From: a virus
Taxonomy: Duplodnaviria > Heunggongvirae > Uroviricota > Caudoviricetes
DNA: 7,996 nt
Virus record (IMG/VR): IMGVR_UViG_2609459791_000005
Location: 1 to 7,996 of that record
Direction: 5' to 3' (one strand)
Below are positions 1 through 7,996 of the stretch, piece after piece. Under the pieces are notes generated by a model. That model did not search any database, had not been told where the DNA came from, and worked only from the letters and a program-made list of their open reading frames with translations. The position numbers and the translations under genes were made by a program. Position 1 is the first letter of the stretch. Each line of letters opens with the position of its first letter.

Positions 1-222
1 ATGCAATCCATTAACTTCCGTACCGCGCGTGGCAACCTTTCTGAAGTGCTCAACAATGTTGAAGCCGGGGAAGAGGTTGAAATCACCCGCAGAGGCCGTG
101 AGCCAGCAGTAATTGTCAGCAAGGCTACTTTCGAAGCCTACAAAAAAGCGGCGCTGGATGCTGAATTTGCATCCCTGTTTGACACCCTGGACTCCACCAA
201 CAAGGAACTGGTTAACCGATAA
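1..222 (+). CDS. phd: Phd antitoxin (type II toxin-antitoxin, Phd/YefM family), P1 prevents-host-death protein
   Basis: 73-aa [76 protein letters not shown] matches my recollection of P1 Phd in sequence and length. Its stop overlaps the next ATG (TAATG at 220-224). The window begins at its start codon, so its promoter is not visible. Confidence 0.9.
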
Positions 223-602
223 TGAGGCATATATCACCGGAAGAACTTATTGCGCTTCATGATGCGAATATAAACCGCTACGGCGGCCTGCCGGGCATGT
301 CAGATCCGGGTAGGGCAGAGGCCATTATCGGGAGAGTTCAGGCCAGAGTTGCCTACGAAGAGATCACCGACCTTTTCGAAGTCTCCGCCACCTACCTGGT
401 GGCTACGGCGAGAGGGCATATATTCAATGATGCCAATAAGCGTACCGCGCTAAACAGTGCGCTGTTATTTCTACGCCGTAACGGGGTGCAGGTATTTGAT
501 TCACCTGAACTGGCAGACCTTACTGTAGGCGCTGCGACTGGCGAGATATCTGTATCTTCTGTCGCCGACACGTTACGTAGATTGTATGGTTCTGCGGAGT
601 AG
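222..602 (+). CDS. doc: Doc toxin (Fic-fold kinase, death on curing)
   Basis: 126-aa ORF directly coupled to phd. It contains the Fic-type motif HIFNDANKR (about 417-443). Sequence and length match recalled P1 Doc. Confidence 0.9.
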
Positions 603-606
603 ATTA

Positions 607-786
607 ATGGCACGCAAATACAACAAATTGTCCCGTGAAGCGTTAAAGATGCTTCTTGATGGCGTGAGTCGCCGCGAGGTAAAGCAATACCTGGTTGGTA
701 AGCAAATTGGAGCCAGGACTGCTATTGCTGTGTTATGCCGTCAGGAAATGGTTGTGCTTAAACAGAGAATGCCGGGCAGCAGATAA
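607..786 (+). CDS. small hypothetical protein with helix-turn-helix-like segment; possibly the first P1 post-doc gene by synteny
   Basis: ATG at 607 lies 7 nt after a GGAG (596-599) and just past the doc stop. The ORF track gives an in-frame upstream ATG at 586 that would overlap doc. The segment SREALKMLLDGVSRREVKQYL looks like an HTH. No family recognised from memory. Confidence 0.4.
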   Translation: MARKYNKLSREALKMLLDGVSRREVKQYLVGKQIGARTAIAVLCRQEMVVLKQRMPGSR

Positions 787-813
787 AGCCCAATCAGTGA
801 TGAAAGGTGTGAT

Positions 814-1857
814 GTGAAAGCCGTAATTACTCCCTTTGTACAAAAAGAGCTTGGCGTCGCCACATTCAAAGTGGATCAGGAAGTCAGAAAGCTGGTGGAG
901 GCTGGCCGTAAATTTATTATGGAGCCGGTGCCGCGTGAGTTAATCGAGCACATGGACGACGGCCTCGTTGTTTCCGAGCAAACTATGGCAACAAATGAGG
1001 CGTTGCAGCCGTTTTTTAACAGCGATGAACTGTTTCGCCGTATTGGTGGAATTGACGCGCTGGTGGCGTGGTTGCGCAGGAAAGAGGGGCAATGCCAGGC
1101 CGCAGATCGTAGCTGCTGTGACAACCATATTGTCCACGCAGAACGAGACAATAGCGCGGTGTTGTTGTGCTGGCATCACGATAACCATTACCGGATGCGT
1201 GGTTTTAATGAGCTGAAAGAAACGCTGCATAATAATCGCGTTAACTGGATACTGGATGTCGCCCGTCAGGAAATGGGGCTTTCAGATGGCCATGATTTAA
1301 GTATTCAGGAACTGTGCTGGTGGGCTTTCATGCGCAACATGATGCACCTGATGCCGGAAGAAGTTTGCCGTATATCAATAAATAAGATGAAAGCCGCAAC
1401 GCAGGATAGCGGACCTCTGAAAGAGGCGGATATTCGCCCGTATGACGATCGCGCTACAGCATATGTTCAGATGATGGAAGAACGCGCCGCGCCGATGCGT
1501 GCAAAAGTATGCCCTGTGGATGTTGACTCCGACCCTGGCATGGCGCATTTCAAAATACCAAAACTGCAATCGCTAAAATTACCTGAGTACATGGACTTTG
1601 TTGCTTCCCGTCCATGCTGTGGGTGTGGAGCGGCGGGAGCTGGCGCTCACATTACGCCTTATATCGTTCGTCATAGTCGATTATGCGCGCATGACATTTA
1701 CGCAATTCCTCTGTGCCAGTCATGCCAGCGTGATATTGAGCGTGACCGCGATAATTGGGAGAAGACGCACGGTAGGCTGGCGATGCATCAACGATTGTTC
1801 TTTGATTACGCGCTTGGAGTCGGCGCTATCACAAGTCACTCGTCGAGCGTTAGATAA
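814..1857 (+). CDS. Cys/His-rich protein with two HNH-like / DUF968-like zinc-motif units; possibly P1 PdcB by synteny
   Basis: 347-aa ORF with GTG start at 814 preceded by AAAGGTG. Motif units are [25 protein letters not shown] and [38 protein letters not shown]. Three Chi octamers lie inside the gene. The name is from recalled P1 gene order, not a search. Confidence 0.6.
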
Positions 1858-1858
1858 A

Positions 1859-1875
1859 ATTGCTCTAATGTATTG
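1859..1875 (+). promoter_or_regulatory. C1 repressor operator-like site upstream of lpa
   Basis: ATTGCTCTAATGTATTG matches 14 of 17 positions of the P1 C1 operator consensus ATTGCTCTAATAAATTT as I recall it. It overlaps the -35 of the candidate promoter below. Confidence 0.55.
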
Positions 1876-1903
1876 CTATTTCTTTAATCGAGGGTGTTAT
1901 ATT
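1873..1903 (+). promoter_or_regulatory. candidate sigma70 promoter for lpa (-35 TTGCTA, extended -10 TGtTATATT)
   Basis: -35-like TTGCTA at 1873-1878 and TG at 1895-1896 followed by TATATT at 1898-1903. The spacer is long (about 19 nt), so the exact elements are uncertain. Confidence 0.35.
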
Positions 1904-1945
1904 CCACGTTGATTAGTTGACATGGGCTAATCAGTAGGTGACAGG

Positions 1946-2398
1946 ATGTTACTTAACTGGCAGGGACGCCACTTCATGGAAATAAATCACTCACGAATAA
2001 CATCGTACGAGATTGCGGATTACATGATCCGCACTAAATCTCTTCTATCAGCGAAAGAACTCGCAGCAATTCTTGAAAAGGAATACCCGCATCTGGATGT
2101 CGATAAGCGCGATGTTTATCTGCGCTTAAAGGCTATCGCTGTGTCTAAGTATTCGTCTGTTTTGATTGATGACAGTACACGCCCACGTAGATTTCAGATC
2201 CACTCTCTGAATCCTGAATTCTTTCGCCGTAGCCGCGCTCCGCGCCGGTTTGATGAAAAACTCCAGAACGAACTCTATATGACGCAGGACGAAAAGGAAC
2301 GCCGGGAGCACCAGCCTTGGGTAATGGCGCGTCAACTTTTCAATAAGGTGGCCCGTCAGCACCGTCATTACGGTAATGCCACATCCGCACGTATCTGA
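1946..2398 (+). CDS. lpa: late promoter activator Lpa (P1 gene 10) candidate
   Basis: 150-aa ORF immediately upstream of pacA, preceded by AGGTG (1936-1940) 5 nt before the ATG and by a C1 operator-like site. Assignment is by position and known P1 gene order (gene 10 next to the pac operon); the protein sequence itself is not recalled. Confidence 0.6.
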   Translation: MLLNWQGRHFMEINHSRITSYEIADYMIRTKSLLSAKELAAILEKEYPHLDVDKRDVYLRLKAIAVSKYSSVLIDDSTRPRRFQIHSLNPEFFRRSRAPRRFDEKLQNELYMTQDEKERREHQPWVMARQLFNKVARQHRHYGNATSARI

Positions 2399-2408
2399 TT
2401 GATTGCTT

Positions 2409-2428
2409 GCCCGTTCCGGGCCTTTTGA
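2409..2428 (+). terminator. weak candidate intrinsic terminator after lpa
   Basis: GCCCG-TTC-CGGGC hairpin (2409-2421) followed by CTTTT. The stem is short, hence low confidence. Confidence 0.25.
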
Positions 2429-2458
2429 CATGTGACTTTCGTTACCCTCGCGTCAAAA
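2423..2458 (+). promoter_or_regulatory. candidate late-promoter / regulatory element upstream of pacA
   Basis: Near-palindromic TTGACATGTGAC (2425-2436) plus a flanking inverted repeat TTTTGAC(2423-2429)...GTCAAAA(2452-2458), about 50 bp upstream of the pacA start. The pac operon is known to be Lpa-dependent, but I cannot recall the late-promoter consensus with confidence. Confidence 0.25.
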
Positions 2459-2483
2459 AGAGTTTTTACGAAAGGAAGCATAA

Positions 2484-3677
2484 GTGACCTGGGACGATCA
2501 CAAGAAGAATTTTGCTCGCCTGGCGCGAGATGGTGGTTACACCATCGCACAGTATGCCGCCGAGTTTAATCTTAACCCTAATACTGCACGTCGTTATCTC
2601 CGTGCCTTCAAAGAAGACACCAGGACAGCGGACAGCCGCAAGCCAAATAAGCCAGTCAGGAAGCCACTAAAAAGCATGATCATTGATCACTCTAATGATC
2701 AACATGCAGGTGATCACATTGCGGCTGAAATAGCGGAAAAACAAAGGGTTAATGCCGTTGTCAGTGCCGCAGTCGAGAATGCGAAGCGCCAAAATAAGCG
2801 CATAAATGATCGTTCTGATGATCATGACGTGATCACCCGCGCCCACCGGACCTTACGTGATCGCCTGGAACGCGACACCCTGGATGATGATGGTGAACGC
2901 TTTGAATTCGAAGCTGGCGATTACCTGATAGATAACGTTGAAGCGCGGAAGGCCGCGCGCGCTATGTTGCGTCGGTCCGGGGCCGATGTTCTGGAAACCA
3001 CTCTTCTTGAAAAGTCTCTTTCTCATCTCCTTATGCTGGAGAACGCCAGGGATACGTGTATTCGCCTGGTGCAGGAAATGCGCGATCAGCAAAAAGACGA
3101 TGATGAAGGTACTCCGCCTGAATACCGTATCGCGAGCATGCTAAACAGCTGTTCCGCGCAGATAAGCAGCCTGATCAACACCATTTACAGCATCCGGAAT
3201 AACTATCGAAAAGAAAGCCTGGAGGCGGAAAAGCACGCTTTGTCTATGGGGCAAGCTGGCATTGTTAAGCTGGCATACGAACGAAAGCGTGAAAATAACT
3301 GGTCAGTGCTGGAAGCAGCTGAATTCATCGAGGCGCATGGCGGGAAAGTGCCGCCCCTGATGCTGGAGCAAATCAAAGCCGATCTGCGTGCTCTTAAGAC
3401 CAATACCGATGATGAGGAAAGGCAAACAGCCGTTGGTGGCCCTTCTCTTGAAGATCTGGACAAAGTTGCGCGAGAACGGGCCGCCAACCGCCGCGCCGAT
3501 GCCGCATTGTGGATTGAGCAGCGTAGGGAAGAAATCGCCGATATCGTTGATACAGGCGGTTATGGAGATGTTGATACTGAAGGTGTATCAAACGACCCAT
3601 GGCTGGAACAAGACCTGGACGAAGACGAGGAGGAAGACGAAGAAGTTACCCGCAAGCTATACGGGGATGATGATTAA
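2484..3677 (+). CDS. pacA: terminase small subunit / pac-recognition protein PacA
   Basis: 397-aa ORF with GTG start 5 nt after AAAGGAAG. N-terminus [42 protein letters not shown] is HTH-like, and the C-terminal tail is acidic ([13 protein letters not shown]). The pac hexamer clusters lie inside the gene. Length matches recalled P1 PacA. Confidence 0.9.
2677..2835 (+). other. P1-type pac packaging site: four TGATCA hexamers, spacer, then three TGATC(A/G) hexamers, each carrying a Dam GATC
   Basis: TGATCA at 2677-2682, 2684-2689, 2696-2701 and 2711-2716. TGATCG at 2807-2812, TGATCA at 2819-2824 and 2830-2835. This matches the published P1 pac architecture of 4+3 hexanucleotide elements flanking the cleavage region. 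Confidence 0.85.
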
Positions 3678-4531
3678 TGGCCAGAAGTTGCGTAACGGAT
3701 CCACGTTGGCGCGAGCTGGTGGCGCTATATCGTTATGACTGGATTGCGGCCGCTGATGTTTTGTTCGGCAAAACACCTACCTGGCAGCAGGATCTGATTA
3801 TTGAGTCTGTGCAGGAACAGGGTAGCAAGACATCTGTTTCGTCTGGTCACGGTACCGGGAAATCAGACATGACTTCTATCATGATCATGTTGTTCATAAT
3901 CATGTATCCCGGTGCCCGAGCCATTATCGTTGCGAACAAAATTCAGCAGGTAATGACCGGTATATTCAAGTACATCAAGATAAACTGGGCTACTGCCACC
4001 AGCCGTTTCCCATGGCTTGCTGATTATTTTGTTCTGACAGAAACCGCTTTCTATGAGGTTACTGGTAAAGGTGTATGGACTGTAGTACCGAAGGGCTTTC
4101 GTCTGGGAAGTGAAGAAGCTCTCGCCGGTGAACACGCAGATCATCTTCTGTATATTATCGATGAAGCCTCCGGTGTCAGTGATAGAGCTTTCGGTATCAT
4201 CACCGGTGCTCTTACCGGACAGGATAACCGCATCTTATTACTGTCACAGCCTACACGCCCAAGCCAACGTCTAAGGAGGCTGCCAATATGGCTACTATCC
4301 CTACCCCAACTCATCCTGAATTTATCTGCCGCTTTTACTCCTGCCAAAAACGTCACTATCACTTCGTTATTGCACCAACAGAAGATGAGGCCCGCTCTCA
4401 GCTTCCTGACGCCCCATGTATTTTCTCTGCCCGTTTTTCCACTGATTCACGCAATTCTCTCAGTTACTGGTGCCTCCCTGTTAACGCTTCTGCTCAGGAG
4501 GGACTATGAGAACGTCATTAGTCACCCGTGA
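3677..4531 (+). CDS. pacB: terminase large subunit PacB, N-terminal ATPase portion only (truncated; 3' tail of the ORF is not protein-like)
   Basis: Start overlaps the pacA stop (TAATG at 3675-3679). Walker A GHGTGKS at about 3845-3865 and Walker [10 protein letters not shown] at about 4145-4171. Terminase-like sequence runs to QPTRPS (about 4264); the frame then reads a Leu/Ser/Pro-rich string to the stop at 4531. Confidence 0.6.
4288..4509 (+). CDS. icd: Icd-like small protein (host cell-division inhibitor family of immI-type antirepressor operons)
   Basis: 73-aa ORF preceded by TAAGGAGG (4270-4277). Its stop overlaps the next ATG as ATGA (4506-4509). The segment [28 protein letters not shown] resembles Icd-like proteins; length matches recalled P1 Icd (73 aa). 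Confidence 0.5.
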
Positions 4532-5624
4532 AGAGATGATCGAGGCAATTGAACAGCACATTGCCTGTATCAGTACCAGGGATATACCAGGCGTTATTGC
4601 CAACTACTTCATGATCACCAAACAACTTTACCGGAGAAAGGACAAGAACTCGGTTCACCGTATCCTGTTGTCTGATATCCGCGAATACCTGCTCGAACAG
4701 GGTCATCTGAATTACGCAACCGTCGCAGCCGAAGCACGCAAGGAGGCACACAGAATGAAAGCAACTAACGTTAAATCAGAAAAAATTCATGCACCTTCAG
4801 TTCAGGAATCGGAGCTGGTGGTTGTTCAGAATCAGTCTGATGAAATTCCCGTTCTGGAATGGCAGGGAGCGCGTGTAGTGACAACCGAGACTCTTGCTAG
4901 AGGGTATGGGACAGAAACAATCCGTATTCGCCAAAATCATCATGAGAACAAAGTACGCTTTGTTGAAGGGAAGCACTTTTTCAAAGTTGAAGGAGAATCA
5001 TTGCGCGAGTTGAAGCACAGAGTAGCTTTAAACTACTCTGTAAAAATTGCTCGCAATGTTCGCTCACTCACCCTCTGGACAGAACGCGGCGCAGCCCGCC
5101 ACGCTAAAATGCTCGAAACCGATCAGGCATGGGCATTCTTTGAAAAACTGGAAGACAGCTACTTCCGACAAAAAGAACAGCAACCGGTCGCAATCCCCCA
5201 GACGATTCCAGAAGCTCTGCGCCTGGCTGCCGAGTTAGCTGAACAAAAGCAACTTCTGGAACAGAAAGCCCACCAGCTAAATCAGCAGCTGGTGGCCGCC
5301 GCTTCTAAAGTCGATTTTGCCGACCGGGTATCAGTAGCTAAAGGGATCCTGATTGGGAATTTTGCAAAGGTCGTTGGACTTAAACAAAATGCGCTGTTTG
5401 CCTGGTTACGGGAGAACGGCATTCTGATAGCGTCCGGAGGCCGTAAAAATGTACCGTTCCAGCAGTACATCAACGCGGGGTATTTCACGGTGAAAGAAGT
5501 GGTGCTGGATGATGAAGATGGCTACCAGATACGGTTGACGCCTCAATTAACGGGTAAAGGCCAGCAGTGGTTGACGCGTAAACTGCTCGATGCTGGTTTG
5601 TTAAAACCGGTGGCGGCTGAATAA
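4506..5624 (+). CDS. ant: phage antirepressor Ant (ORF6N-like domain plus KilAC-like C-terminal domain); nested in-frame second start at 4755 (Ant2-like)
   Basis: 372-aa ORF with AGGAGG at 4495-4500. ORF6N-like stretch [47 protein letters not shown] and KilAC-like stretch [58 protein letters not shown]. An internal in-frame ATG at 4755 follows AGGAGG at 4741-4746. Confidence 0.7.
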
Positions 5625-5631
5625 TGGAAGA

Positions 5632-5661
5632 ATGCCCGGTTGATGCCGGGCATAATTTATT
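5632..5661. terminator. bidirectional intrinsic terminator between convergent ant and c1
   Basis: Perfect 8-bp stem ATGCCCGG / CCGGGCAT (5632-5639 and 5646-5653) with 6-nt loop, T-rich on both flanks. It sits 8 nt after the ant stop and directly after the c1 stop. Confidence 0.6.
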
Positions 5662-6508
5662 GCGCGCTTTCGGGGTTGTCGTTTACTGGCTGCCCCTTCT
5701 TGGTTTTACGGCTGCGCGTAACTGATGCGGCTGACTTAACCTTTTTCTCTTCGCGAGTGATGGCAATTTGTTTTTTTACATTTTCAATATCTGCCAGGCG
5801 ATATATTTTTGCTTGCGGCCAGCGGCCGCAGATGATCGGTTCTATGGAGTCATAAAGGCTAAATTTTGCTTTTTCGAATTCACCGTTGATGATAATTCCA
5901 TCACGGAGAGTTTCATCGCAGATAAACACGCCACACAGTGGCACATGGTAACTAACTGATTTACCATCATTGTAGTTAGGGCTACTGGAAATGTAGTGGA
6001 CGCGCAGCATTGTTTCGCTAAAGCCGTGTACGCGCATACGGAATTTTTCATCCTCCGGGTACTGCTTCATTAGCTCTTTTGTTGCTTCCAGGTTCTCTAT
6101 GTATTTCGCACTGTGCTCATTGATCCCCGCGCTTTTTTGGATGCGAATGTCCTTATCAATCAGATGAATAATGCGGCCAGCGGTCATGTTGACGCTGTTC
6201 ACAGCTTCTGTCTGATAAGTTGTAACCTTACGCACACCGCGAAGGATGTTAGGCACTGGATATAAAATAGTCTTTGGGATATTGAGGTCTGGGTACTGTT
6301 CCAGTTCCCGCGCCATTAAAGTCCATTTATCAATTTCAGCCTGAATGCTGTCAGTTTCTTTGAACGGTAGAACGACAACCGGGCGTACAGGACGACCGTC
6401 GCTGGCTGTATCAACGTGTTGGGCGCGTGCAACAGCTTTTTTTAGAAAGAGATCCCTGAAGCTGACGAACTCCTGGTACAGTTGTTCGCCGTAGACATAA
6501 TTTATCAT
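5657..6508 (-). CDS. c1: C1 master repressor of lysogeny (immC)
   Basis: 283-aa ORF MINYVYGEQLYQEFVSFRDLFLKK... matches recalled P1 C1 in sequence and length. Strong SD GGAGGAGG precedes the ATG on the minus strand. Confidence 0.9.
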   Translation of the reverse strand: MINYVYGEQLYQEFVSFRDLFLKKAVARAQHVDTASDGRPVRPVVVLPFKETDSIQAEIDKWTLMARELEQYPDLNIPKTILYPVPNILRGVRKVTTYQTEAVNSVNMTAGRIIHLIDKDIRIQKSAGINEHSAKYIENLEATKELMKQYPEDEKFRMRVHGFSETMLRVHYISSSPNYNDGKSVSYHVPLCGVFICDETLRDGIIINGEFEKAKFSLYDSIEPIICGRWPQAKIYRLADIENVKKQIAITREEKKVKSAASVTRSRKTKKGQPVNDNPESAQ

Positions 6509-6602
6509 TGATCCTCCTCCAGAATTGACATGGTCAATAACGCCCGGCTGAGAAAACCGGTCATTACTGACCTATATTATAGAGGGATCAAACGAAAATA
6601 AT

Positions 6603-6619
6603 AGATTTATTAGTGCATT
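6603..6619 (-). promoter_or_regulatory. C1 operator-like site (Op99e-like) overlapping the c1 promoter, between coi and c1
   Basis: Minus strand reads AATGCACTAATAAATCT, 14 of 17 matches to ATTGCTCTAATAAATTT. A TATAAT hexamer lies downstream on the minus strand at plus coordinates 6576-6581, consistent with an autoregulated promoter. Confidence 0.5.
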
Positions 6620-6828
6620 TATTGTGAGTCTAACTGGTTAGTTGCCATGAGATATTCGATTGTGTCAGTGAGGTCATCCAGGTCGTCTTGGGTGATGCGG
6701 TACTCCTGATTGGATATCTTTGAGTAGTGTTCAGCAATGGCGCGGGCTGCGTCGGTTTCGGCAGGGTCTACAGATAAAGCGTTAGAGCAATGTCTAACGT
6801 CGTCGATGGTTGGTTGAATGAAAGCCAT
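6619..6828 (-). CDS. coi: Coi, C1 inactivator
   Basis: 69-aa acidic ORF immediately upstream of c1 on the same strand. Position and length match recalled P1 coi. Confidence 0.8.
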   Translation of the reverse strand: MAFIQPTIDDVRHCSNALSVDPAETDAARAIAEHYSKISNQEYRITQDDLDDLTDTIEYLMATNQLDSQ

Positions 6829-6947
6829 AATTATGCCTCACTGTATTGACAACACAGAGCCTGAAGCTCTGACCTACTGTTTCACCCATGATCCATGCTG
6901 GGGTAATCTAACAACGTTGCGCTGTGTGTAAGATGAGCAATGCATAG

Positions 6948-7996
<1,049 letters not shown>

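Follow-up and report, generated by a model that had tools for sequence, protein, structure and literature searches.

The large terminase powers headful packaging. In phage P1 this protein is PacB (gp110, 494 aa), the large subunit of the pacase, and orthologues are present in RCS47, 673R5, SJ46 and P7. PacA and PacB are both needed for faithful cleavage of the pac site, according to the passage of PMC10028697 that cites Skorupski et al. (1994). In classical P1 the repressor gene c1 directly follows pacB (P1 annotation). In the Escherichia phages vB_EcoM-673R5 (673R5) and RCS47, the annotations place a 494-aa pacB, then icd and an antirepressor gene, ahead of c1, and the order of this type is phd-doc-pdcA-pdcB-lpa-pacA-pacB-[C1 operator/promoter - leader - c4 RNA - icd - ant]-c1-coi. 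Venturini et al. (2019) likewise reported that ant and two short ORFs separate pacB from c1 "as in RCS47" (PMC6906374), and P1 derivatives without lytic or morphogenetic functions, e.g. pJIE250-3, have been described in the same paper. The accessory module is patterned on P1 immI (c4 antisense RNA, Icd, Ant1/2); in P1, Ant antagonises C1 and is restrained by the c4 RNA and by Icd-coupled translation (PMC8201110). Here we analyzed a P1-like locus in which both pacB and this module are altered: a stretch of 7,996 nt from the IMG/VR virus record IMGVR_UViG_2609459791_000005 ("the window"), in which a chimeric ORF of 284 aa (3677-4531, plus strand) stands where pacB is expected.

We propose, at a probability of about 0.9, that one illegitimate deletion of ~1.2 kb truncated pacB and took with it the control region of the accessory icd-ant module, and that the element should not package its own DNA. 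Codons 1-196 of the ORF (pacB', 3677-4264, plus strand) are genuine pacB codons: their translation is identical to 673R5 PacB at 196 of 196 residues and 82% identical to P1-type PacB, the alignment ending exactly at …QPTRPS (nt 4264), where a preliminary description of this DNA, made from the sequence alone, had seen the terminase-like sequence stop. The Walker A and Walker B motifs that it had reported are real, both lying on invariant columns of a 46-sequence alignment of the PacB family. Walker A (GHGTGKS) occupies residues 57-63 (nt 3845-3865; G57, H58, G59, G61, K62 and S63 invariant) and Walker B residues 157-165 (nt 4145-4171; LLYIIDE at 157-163, D162 and E163 invariant), while motif III, SQPT, also invariant, is found at residues 190-193 (nt 4244-4255), on strand 185-190 of the structural model described below. 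Beyond residue 196 the same frame runs through 88 codons and a stop (4265-4531, plus strand) that are not terminase sequence. Their Leu/Ser/Pro-rich composition, noted earlier, is confirmed (L 20, P 8 and S 8 within 4265-4528) and arises because the tail overlies icd (4288-4509) and reads the icd region in another frame; no Pfam family matched these 88 residues, even at E<=10. Compared with P1 PacB and its orthologues, the locus thus keeps codons 1-196 with Walker A, Walker B and motif III, the position after pacA and the ATGA-type overlap, but lacks residues 197-494 (ATPase lid, linker and nuclease), in place of which it carries the out-of-frame tail.

The missing part of PacB was not found nearby: a tblastn search with residues 197-494 returned no match in any frame of the window, as the preliminary description had stated for a nuclease domain in the downstream plus-strand frames, nor in five further contigs of 7-15 kb carrying the same allele. 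The reference PacB is 494 aa long (the preliminary description had given roughly 495), and against 673R5, RCS47, P1 and the Logan contig L011 the alignment of the ORF stops at residue 196 (nt 4264). Thus neither a reference PacB collinear with the ORF over its whole length nor a nuclease domain in the tail, the two observations that the preliminary description had named as fatal to a truncated pacB, was encountered. A homologue search with the 196-aa stump yielded only short or truncated proteins and was repeated with full-length PacB; among the matches listed, full-length PacB homologues are single chains of ~490-550 aa, the few shorter entries being partial or truncated. At NCBI the chimera is named "putative cell division repressor domain protein" (KDV91267.1, KDY99630.1), a misleading name that probably stems from the out-of-frame overlap of the ORF with icd. 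The chimeric ORF is a pacB pseudogene.

The breakpoints were mapped to the nucleotide against three undeleted relatives (673R5, RCS47 and L011). The last of these, which encodes an identical Ant protein, is the closest undeleted relative found. By blastn against 673R5, window positions 1-4264 correspond to 519-4779 and 4264-6947 to 5989-8668, i.e. a clean deletion of 1,209 bp; against L011, window positions 1-4264 correspond to 146-4409 and 4264-6973 to 5622-8331, with the same breakpoints and a gap of 1,212 bp. The breakpoint that the preliminary description had proposed to locate by such alignments therefore lies at 4264/4265, at the junction …CCCAAGC/CAACGTC…, with a microhomology of 1 nt (C). 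At the junction, pacB codon 196 is followed directly by sequence that begins 23 nt ahead of the icd start, so the lost span comprises pacB codons 197-494 (the back 60% of the gene) and the first 312 bp of the 336-bp spacer between pacB and icd. In agreement with this, the homologous stretch in the records of 673R5, RCS47 and phage JL22 is ~1.2 kb longer than that of the window (megablast). Two other origins of the junction were considered and rejected: i) insertion of icd-ant into pacB, as the module lies downstream of a complete pacB in the relatives and no 3' part of pacB follows ant in the window; and ii) deletion mediated by IS5, as no insertion sequence (IS) is present at either breakpoint.

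The domain content of the stump could not be read from Pfam, which found no significant family for the 284-aa ORF, the 196-aa stump or full-length PacB (best matches AAA_19/AAA_30 at E~0.14 and an RNaseH-like domain at E 0.26). Since Pfam is blind even to intact PacB, it is unable to decide the question, and PHROGs, an AlphaFold model and Foldseek were used instead; a phmmer search of PacB against PDB sequences gave only sub-threshold matches to Sf6 gp2 (E 0.8), which were not used as evidence. In the HMM domain search suggested in the preliminary description, PHROG_2 ("terminase large subunit") aligns to residues 33-474 of intact PacB but only to 33-195 of the window ORF. The AlphaFold2 model of a full-length PacB (P0032), built on the 46-sequence alignment, has a mean pLDDT of 88.2. 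Its core strands are 51-56 (followed by Walker A), 81-86, 135-140, 157-162 (Walker B) and 185-190 (motif III), after which come a helix at 197-202, a strand at 217-222, helices at 232-253 and a dip in confidence at 261-263 in the linker. An ATPase domain of ~1-255 and an interdomain linker of 256-268 can be delimited, followed by an α/β domain of ~269-494 with nuclease strands from 287 onwards.

In a Foldseek search against the PDB, the PacB model matched solved large terminases over the two-domain fold, namely Sf6 gp2 (4IDH/4IEI, full-length, E 7e-22), T4 gp17 (3CPE), D6E TerL (5OE8) and HK97 TerL (6Z6D), and it separately matched the isolated ATPase domain of P74-26 TerL (4ZNI) and the nuclease domain of Sf6 gp2 (5C10); E-values for the solved terminases ranged from 7e-22 to 1.5e-13, whereas sequence identity to PacB is only 10-20%. 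On the strength of this model, full-length PacB is a classical large terminase with an ATPase and an RNase-H-like nuclease, which agrees with the architecture assumed in the preliminary description. The further claim made there, that pacB retains its ATPase half and nothing else, needs to be amended: truncation and loss of the nuclease stand, but in the model the ATPase domain runs to ~255 and the break at 196 falls inside it. The stump represents the first ~77% of that domain, from which the helix 197-202, the last core strand 217-222 and the lid helices 232-253 are gone. The RNase-H-like nuclease (~269-494) is lost entirely from the ORF, including the acidic residues D293, D356 and D457, which are invariant in the family alignment and presumably catalytic. 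Thus the window ORF, in contrast to the solved large terminases, spans the ATPase domain in part only.

Besides the back part of pacB, the deletion removed the sequences that precede icd in the relatives. In the undeleted relatives a C1-operator-like site, TTTGCTCTAATAAATTG, lies 16 bp past the pacB stop and within the deleted span (5310-5326 in L011). In the window, operator matches were confined to Olpa (1859-1875) and Oc1 (6603-6619), with none between pacB' and icd, so that icd-ant has no C1-controlled promoter/operator of its own upstream. Moreover, the Rfam C4 antisense RNA (RF01695) is matched over its full length in the deleted span of 673R5, of the RCS47-type locus L002 and of L011 (75-76 bits against a gathering threshold of 45), and in that of L002 and L011 an isrK-like leader is present as well (Rfam, 60-61 bits); the leader of 673R5 has a terminator-like hairpin. 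At the gathering threshold neither C4 nor isrK was detected in the window or in L012, another contig with the deletion, and no c4 therefore precedes icd in the window. An a2-like site (UUGGUCU) also sits in the deleted part. What was kept is a b2-like target, CGTCTAAGG (4268-4279, plus strand), overlapped by the icd Shine-Dalgarno sequence AAGGAGG. By inspection, the c4 hairpin loop of the undeleted relatives, CCUUGGACG, is complementary, with one G·U pair, to the retained CGUCUAAGG at 4268-4276, which suggests that the deleted c4 RNA may target the retained b2-like site over the icd Shine-Dalgarno sequence. RNAduplex did not distinguish the pairing of the deleted c4 RNA with the retained icd leader (-44.3) from that with shuffled targets (mean -41.1, sd 4.7).

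Downstream of the junction the module itself is intact. The icd gene (4288-4509, plus strand, 73 aa) corresponds to the annotated Icd of 673R5 and matches PHROG_1426 (E 2e-43), and the ant start overlaps the icd stop (ATGA). The antirepressor gene ant (4506-5624, plus strand), annotated as such in RCS47, encodes 372 aa with ORF6N and KilAC domains (Pfam ANT 1.2e-30, ORF6N 2.1e-19; PHROG_63 3.6e-129). Compared with the RCS47-type module, the window has icd and ant in unchanged position and order ahead of c1 and coi, but it is without the C1-operator-like site, the isrK-like leader, the c4 gene and the a2-like target, and the remainder is fused to pacB'. In the RCS47-type phages the span lost from the window forms part of a second immI-like module between pacB and c1 (673R5 5677-6012, L002 5773-5983, L011 5310-5591), and homology between the leader of this module and the Salmonella IsrK locus is suggested by the isrK match. 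No consensus terminator was found between pacA-pacB' and icd-ant in the window. In the proposed arrangement icd-ant would be transcriptionally fused to pacA-pacB' and expressed by read-through from the pac promoters, without cis-encoded c4 control, and c4 control could come only in trans, from another copy of immI; expression of icd-ant is thus likely to be altered.

The junction recurs in independent assemblies. By exact protein match the identical 284-aa chimera was found on 16 contigs, drawn from ENA metagenome assemblies (SPAdes, MEGAHIT), Logan and NCBI isolates, and the contigs of this lineage span 7-19 kb. Contig JNRK01000040.1 of E. coli 2-474-04_S1_C2 matches the window at 100% identity, the remaining contigs show 0-3 single-nucleotide polymorphisms (SNPs), and a second isolate with the same protein is E. 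coli 2-156-04_S1_C3. Two left flanks accompany the allele, one with an IS5 adjoining a ttrBCA cluster and the other with the usual hsdM; beyond the right-hand IS5 the P1 backbone resumes as cra-cre. The junction was absent from phage records and species-representative genomes, and exact searches of genome and viral contig collections were also empty. The allele is a circulating and recently derived lineage.

The packaging site and the small subunit, on the other hand, are preserved. The late promoter LPpac (2430-2448, plus strand) is identical to the annotated P1 LPpac at 19 of 19 positions. The pacA gene, annotated in RCS47 and P1, is intact (2484-3677, plus strand, 397 aa) and matches P1 PacA at 384 of 398 positions (ungapped, stop included). 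Within it lies the pac site (2684-2863, plus strand), whose seven TGATC(A/G) hexamers, the role of which is described in PMC10028697, form clusters of three and then four that flank the cleavage region and occupy the same relative positions as in P1. In L011, the closest undeleted relative, pacB is near full length (490 aa) and pacA (2629-3822) is broken into two ORFs (102 and 282 aa), which is either a different lesion of a packaging gene or a sequencing error. Since the pac cut requires both PacA and PacB, and since headful packaging is driven by the large terminase, the element of the window should not package its own DNA: with PacB truncated it would neither cut pac nor fill heads, and it would persist as a plasmid only. 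Because pacA, pac and LPpac are intact, a helper that supplies PacB, such as a co-resident or superinfecting P1-like phage, could in principle package it, and packaging of the element would be expected to depend on such a helper.

Several points weigh against this reading: i) the loss of packaging is a prediction; ii) a second, intact pacB may exist elsewhere, e.g. on a co-resident P1-like plasmid, as the context covered is that of contigs; iii) the junction was absent from 72,556 PLSDB plasmids and 5,426 complete E. coli genomes (megablast); and iv) the lineage recurs across many samples, its copies 0-3 SNPs apart, and the deletion thus has no obvious cost for persistence.

The wide and clonal spread of the allele could instead reflect selection for a rewired locus, in which icd-ant, placed under the pac late operon without c4, answers the late activator of a helper, or in which the stump acts as a dominant negative on the packaging motors of superinfecting P1-like phages. 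The right breakpoint falls 4 nt short of the retained b2-like target and Shine-Dalgarno sequence and so leaves icd and ant precisely intact, and the survival of pacA, pac and LPpac would suit such a role. Yet the stump may be neither expressed nor stable, misfolding is likely for an ATPase that is cut short and ends in hydrophobic nonsense residues, and the 0-3 SNPs between copies give no power to test for selection. Moreover, independent and unrelated lesions of pacB are frequent in the databases, which fits neutral decay: P0002 has PacB residues 1-240 followed by foreign sequence; P0004 (Logan contigs) has residues 1-179 fused to an ORF antisense to lpa (compare window 2126-2431, minus strand, and 3677-4213), which implies that an inversion broke both lpa and pacB, an independent route to loss of pacB; and P0005 and P0026 carry pacB frameshifts. 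Among the PLSDB records, 837 have a PacB match, which covers at least 80% of the protein in 767; truncated pacB genes, like P1 derivatives devoid of lytic functions, are common. We regard a selected rewiring as quite improbable.

A related and very doubtful possibility is that icd-ant is expressed only within the late pacA-pacB' transcript, in which case late activation by a helper might lead to Ant production, de-repression from C1, and packaging of the element by the helper's PacB with its own PacA and pac. If true, a satellite-like, helper-dependent plasmid bearing pac would have arisen from a single deletion.

It is highly unlikely that the ORF is one half of a functional split terminase, supplying the ATPase part while a gene for the nuclease half sits at another place on the replicon. 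The three ATPase motifs (Walker A, Walker B and motif III) are indeed intact, and a nuclease half might lie on parts of the replicon beyond the contigs. However, the stump does not end at the linker (256-268) but within the ATPase domain, short of its last strand and lid, and it bears 88 residues of out-of-frame icd; the PacB homologues, among the matches listed, are single chains apart from the partial or truncated entries; no C-terminal fragment occurs within up to 15 kb of context; and the allele differs from its intact relatives by a single simple deletion. Finally, an assembly artefact, i.e. a mis-join or collapse of short reads from a plasmid that in truth has a full pacB, is extremely unlikely, for although all contigs with the junction come from draft or metagenome assemblies and no closed plasmid or genome carries it, the same junction is shared by 16 contigs across assemblers, samples and two left flanks (IS5 or hsdM), and the breakpoints, with 1 nt of microhomology, hold no repeat prone to collapse.

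The rest of the window is that of a P1-family (Punavirus) segment, as judged from its six-frame ORF list and megablast against phage records, in which the best matches were 673R5 (98.8%) and RCS47 (97.9%), with JL22 also among them. The P1-like synteny phd-doc-pdcA-pdcB-lpa-pacA-pacB-c1-coi is present and collinear with P1, P7, RCS47, 673R5 and SJ46 at 92-99% nucleotide identity. Upstream of LPpac lie phd (1-222), doc (222-602), pdcA (586-786), pdcB (814-1857) and lpa (1946-2398), all on the plus strand. Downstream of ant and on the minus strand are c1 (5657-6508, 283 aa), which is collinear with the annotated c1 of RCS47 and P1 and for which a precomputed match to PF27008 (Phage_P7_repressor_C1) exists for the same gene, and coi (6619-6828, 69 aa), assigned from the annotation of RCS47 and P1, with the C1 operator Oc1 (6603-6619) identified by operator match. 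An IS5-family element (ISKpn26-like; 6945-7996, plus strand) interrupts imcA, as in RCS47, and is cut by the end of the window.

Two different IS5-family copies, 92-94% identical to each other, flank the phd-to-coi block in the source contigs (L004 567-1767 and 8812-10010; L005 5065-6265). The right-hand copy is placed in imcA exactly as in RCS47, and the left-hand copy of L005 directly borders a plasmid-borne ttrBCA-metQ cluster; in L012, which shares the deletion allele, the left flank is hsdM without an IS5. In the related complete P1-like plasmid CP057248.1 (locus 2482-10052), two ISKpn26 copies enclose a dmsABCD-like cluster at the imcA position that a single IS5 occupies in the window, an arrangement that suggests insertion of a composite transposon which may be lost through IS-IS recombination.

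These features recall the defective P1-like plasmids such as pJIE250-3, which likewise have an IS-riddled P1 backbone and inactivated phage functions; here the insertions are the IS5 in imcA, an IS5 upstream of phd in some contigs and a Tn3 near cre. On the other hand, this pacB-to-c4 deletion allele is absent from the phage records, PLSDB plasmids and complete E. coli genomes searched. The allele is thus new, but the process behind it, by which a phage-plasmid decays into a plasmid, is familiar: this is an ordinary pseudogene rather than a new kind of system, and mildly unusual only in that a single deletion hit both the terminase and the control region of an antirepressor module. It leaves the current understanding of terminases and of P1 unchallenged. 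In annotation the ORF should read as a pseudogene chimera, and the locus offers a natural icd-ant module without c4 or operator, usable for studying accessory antirepressor control in P1-like elements. With respect to mobility, transducing particles of its own should not be a route of spread for a P1-like plasmid that carries this allele, and the allele therefore bears on judging whether P1-like phage-plasmids, which are often carriers of resistance genes, remain active phages.

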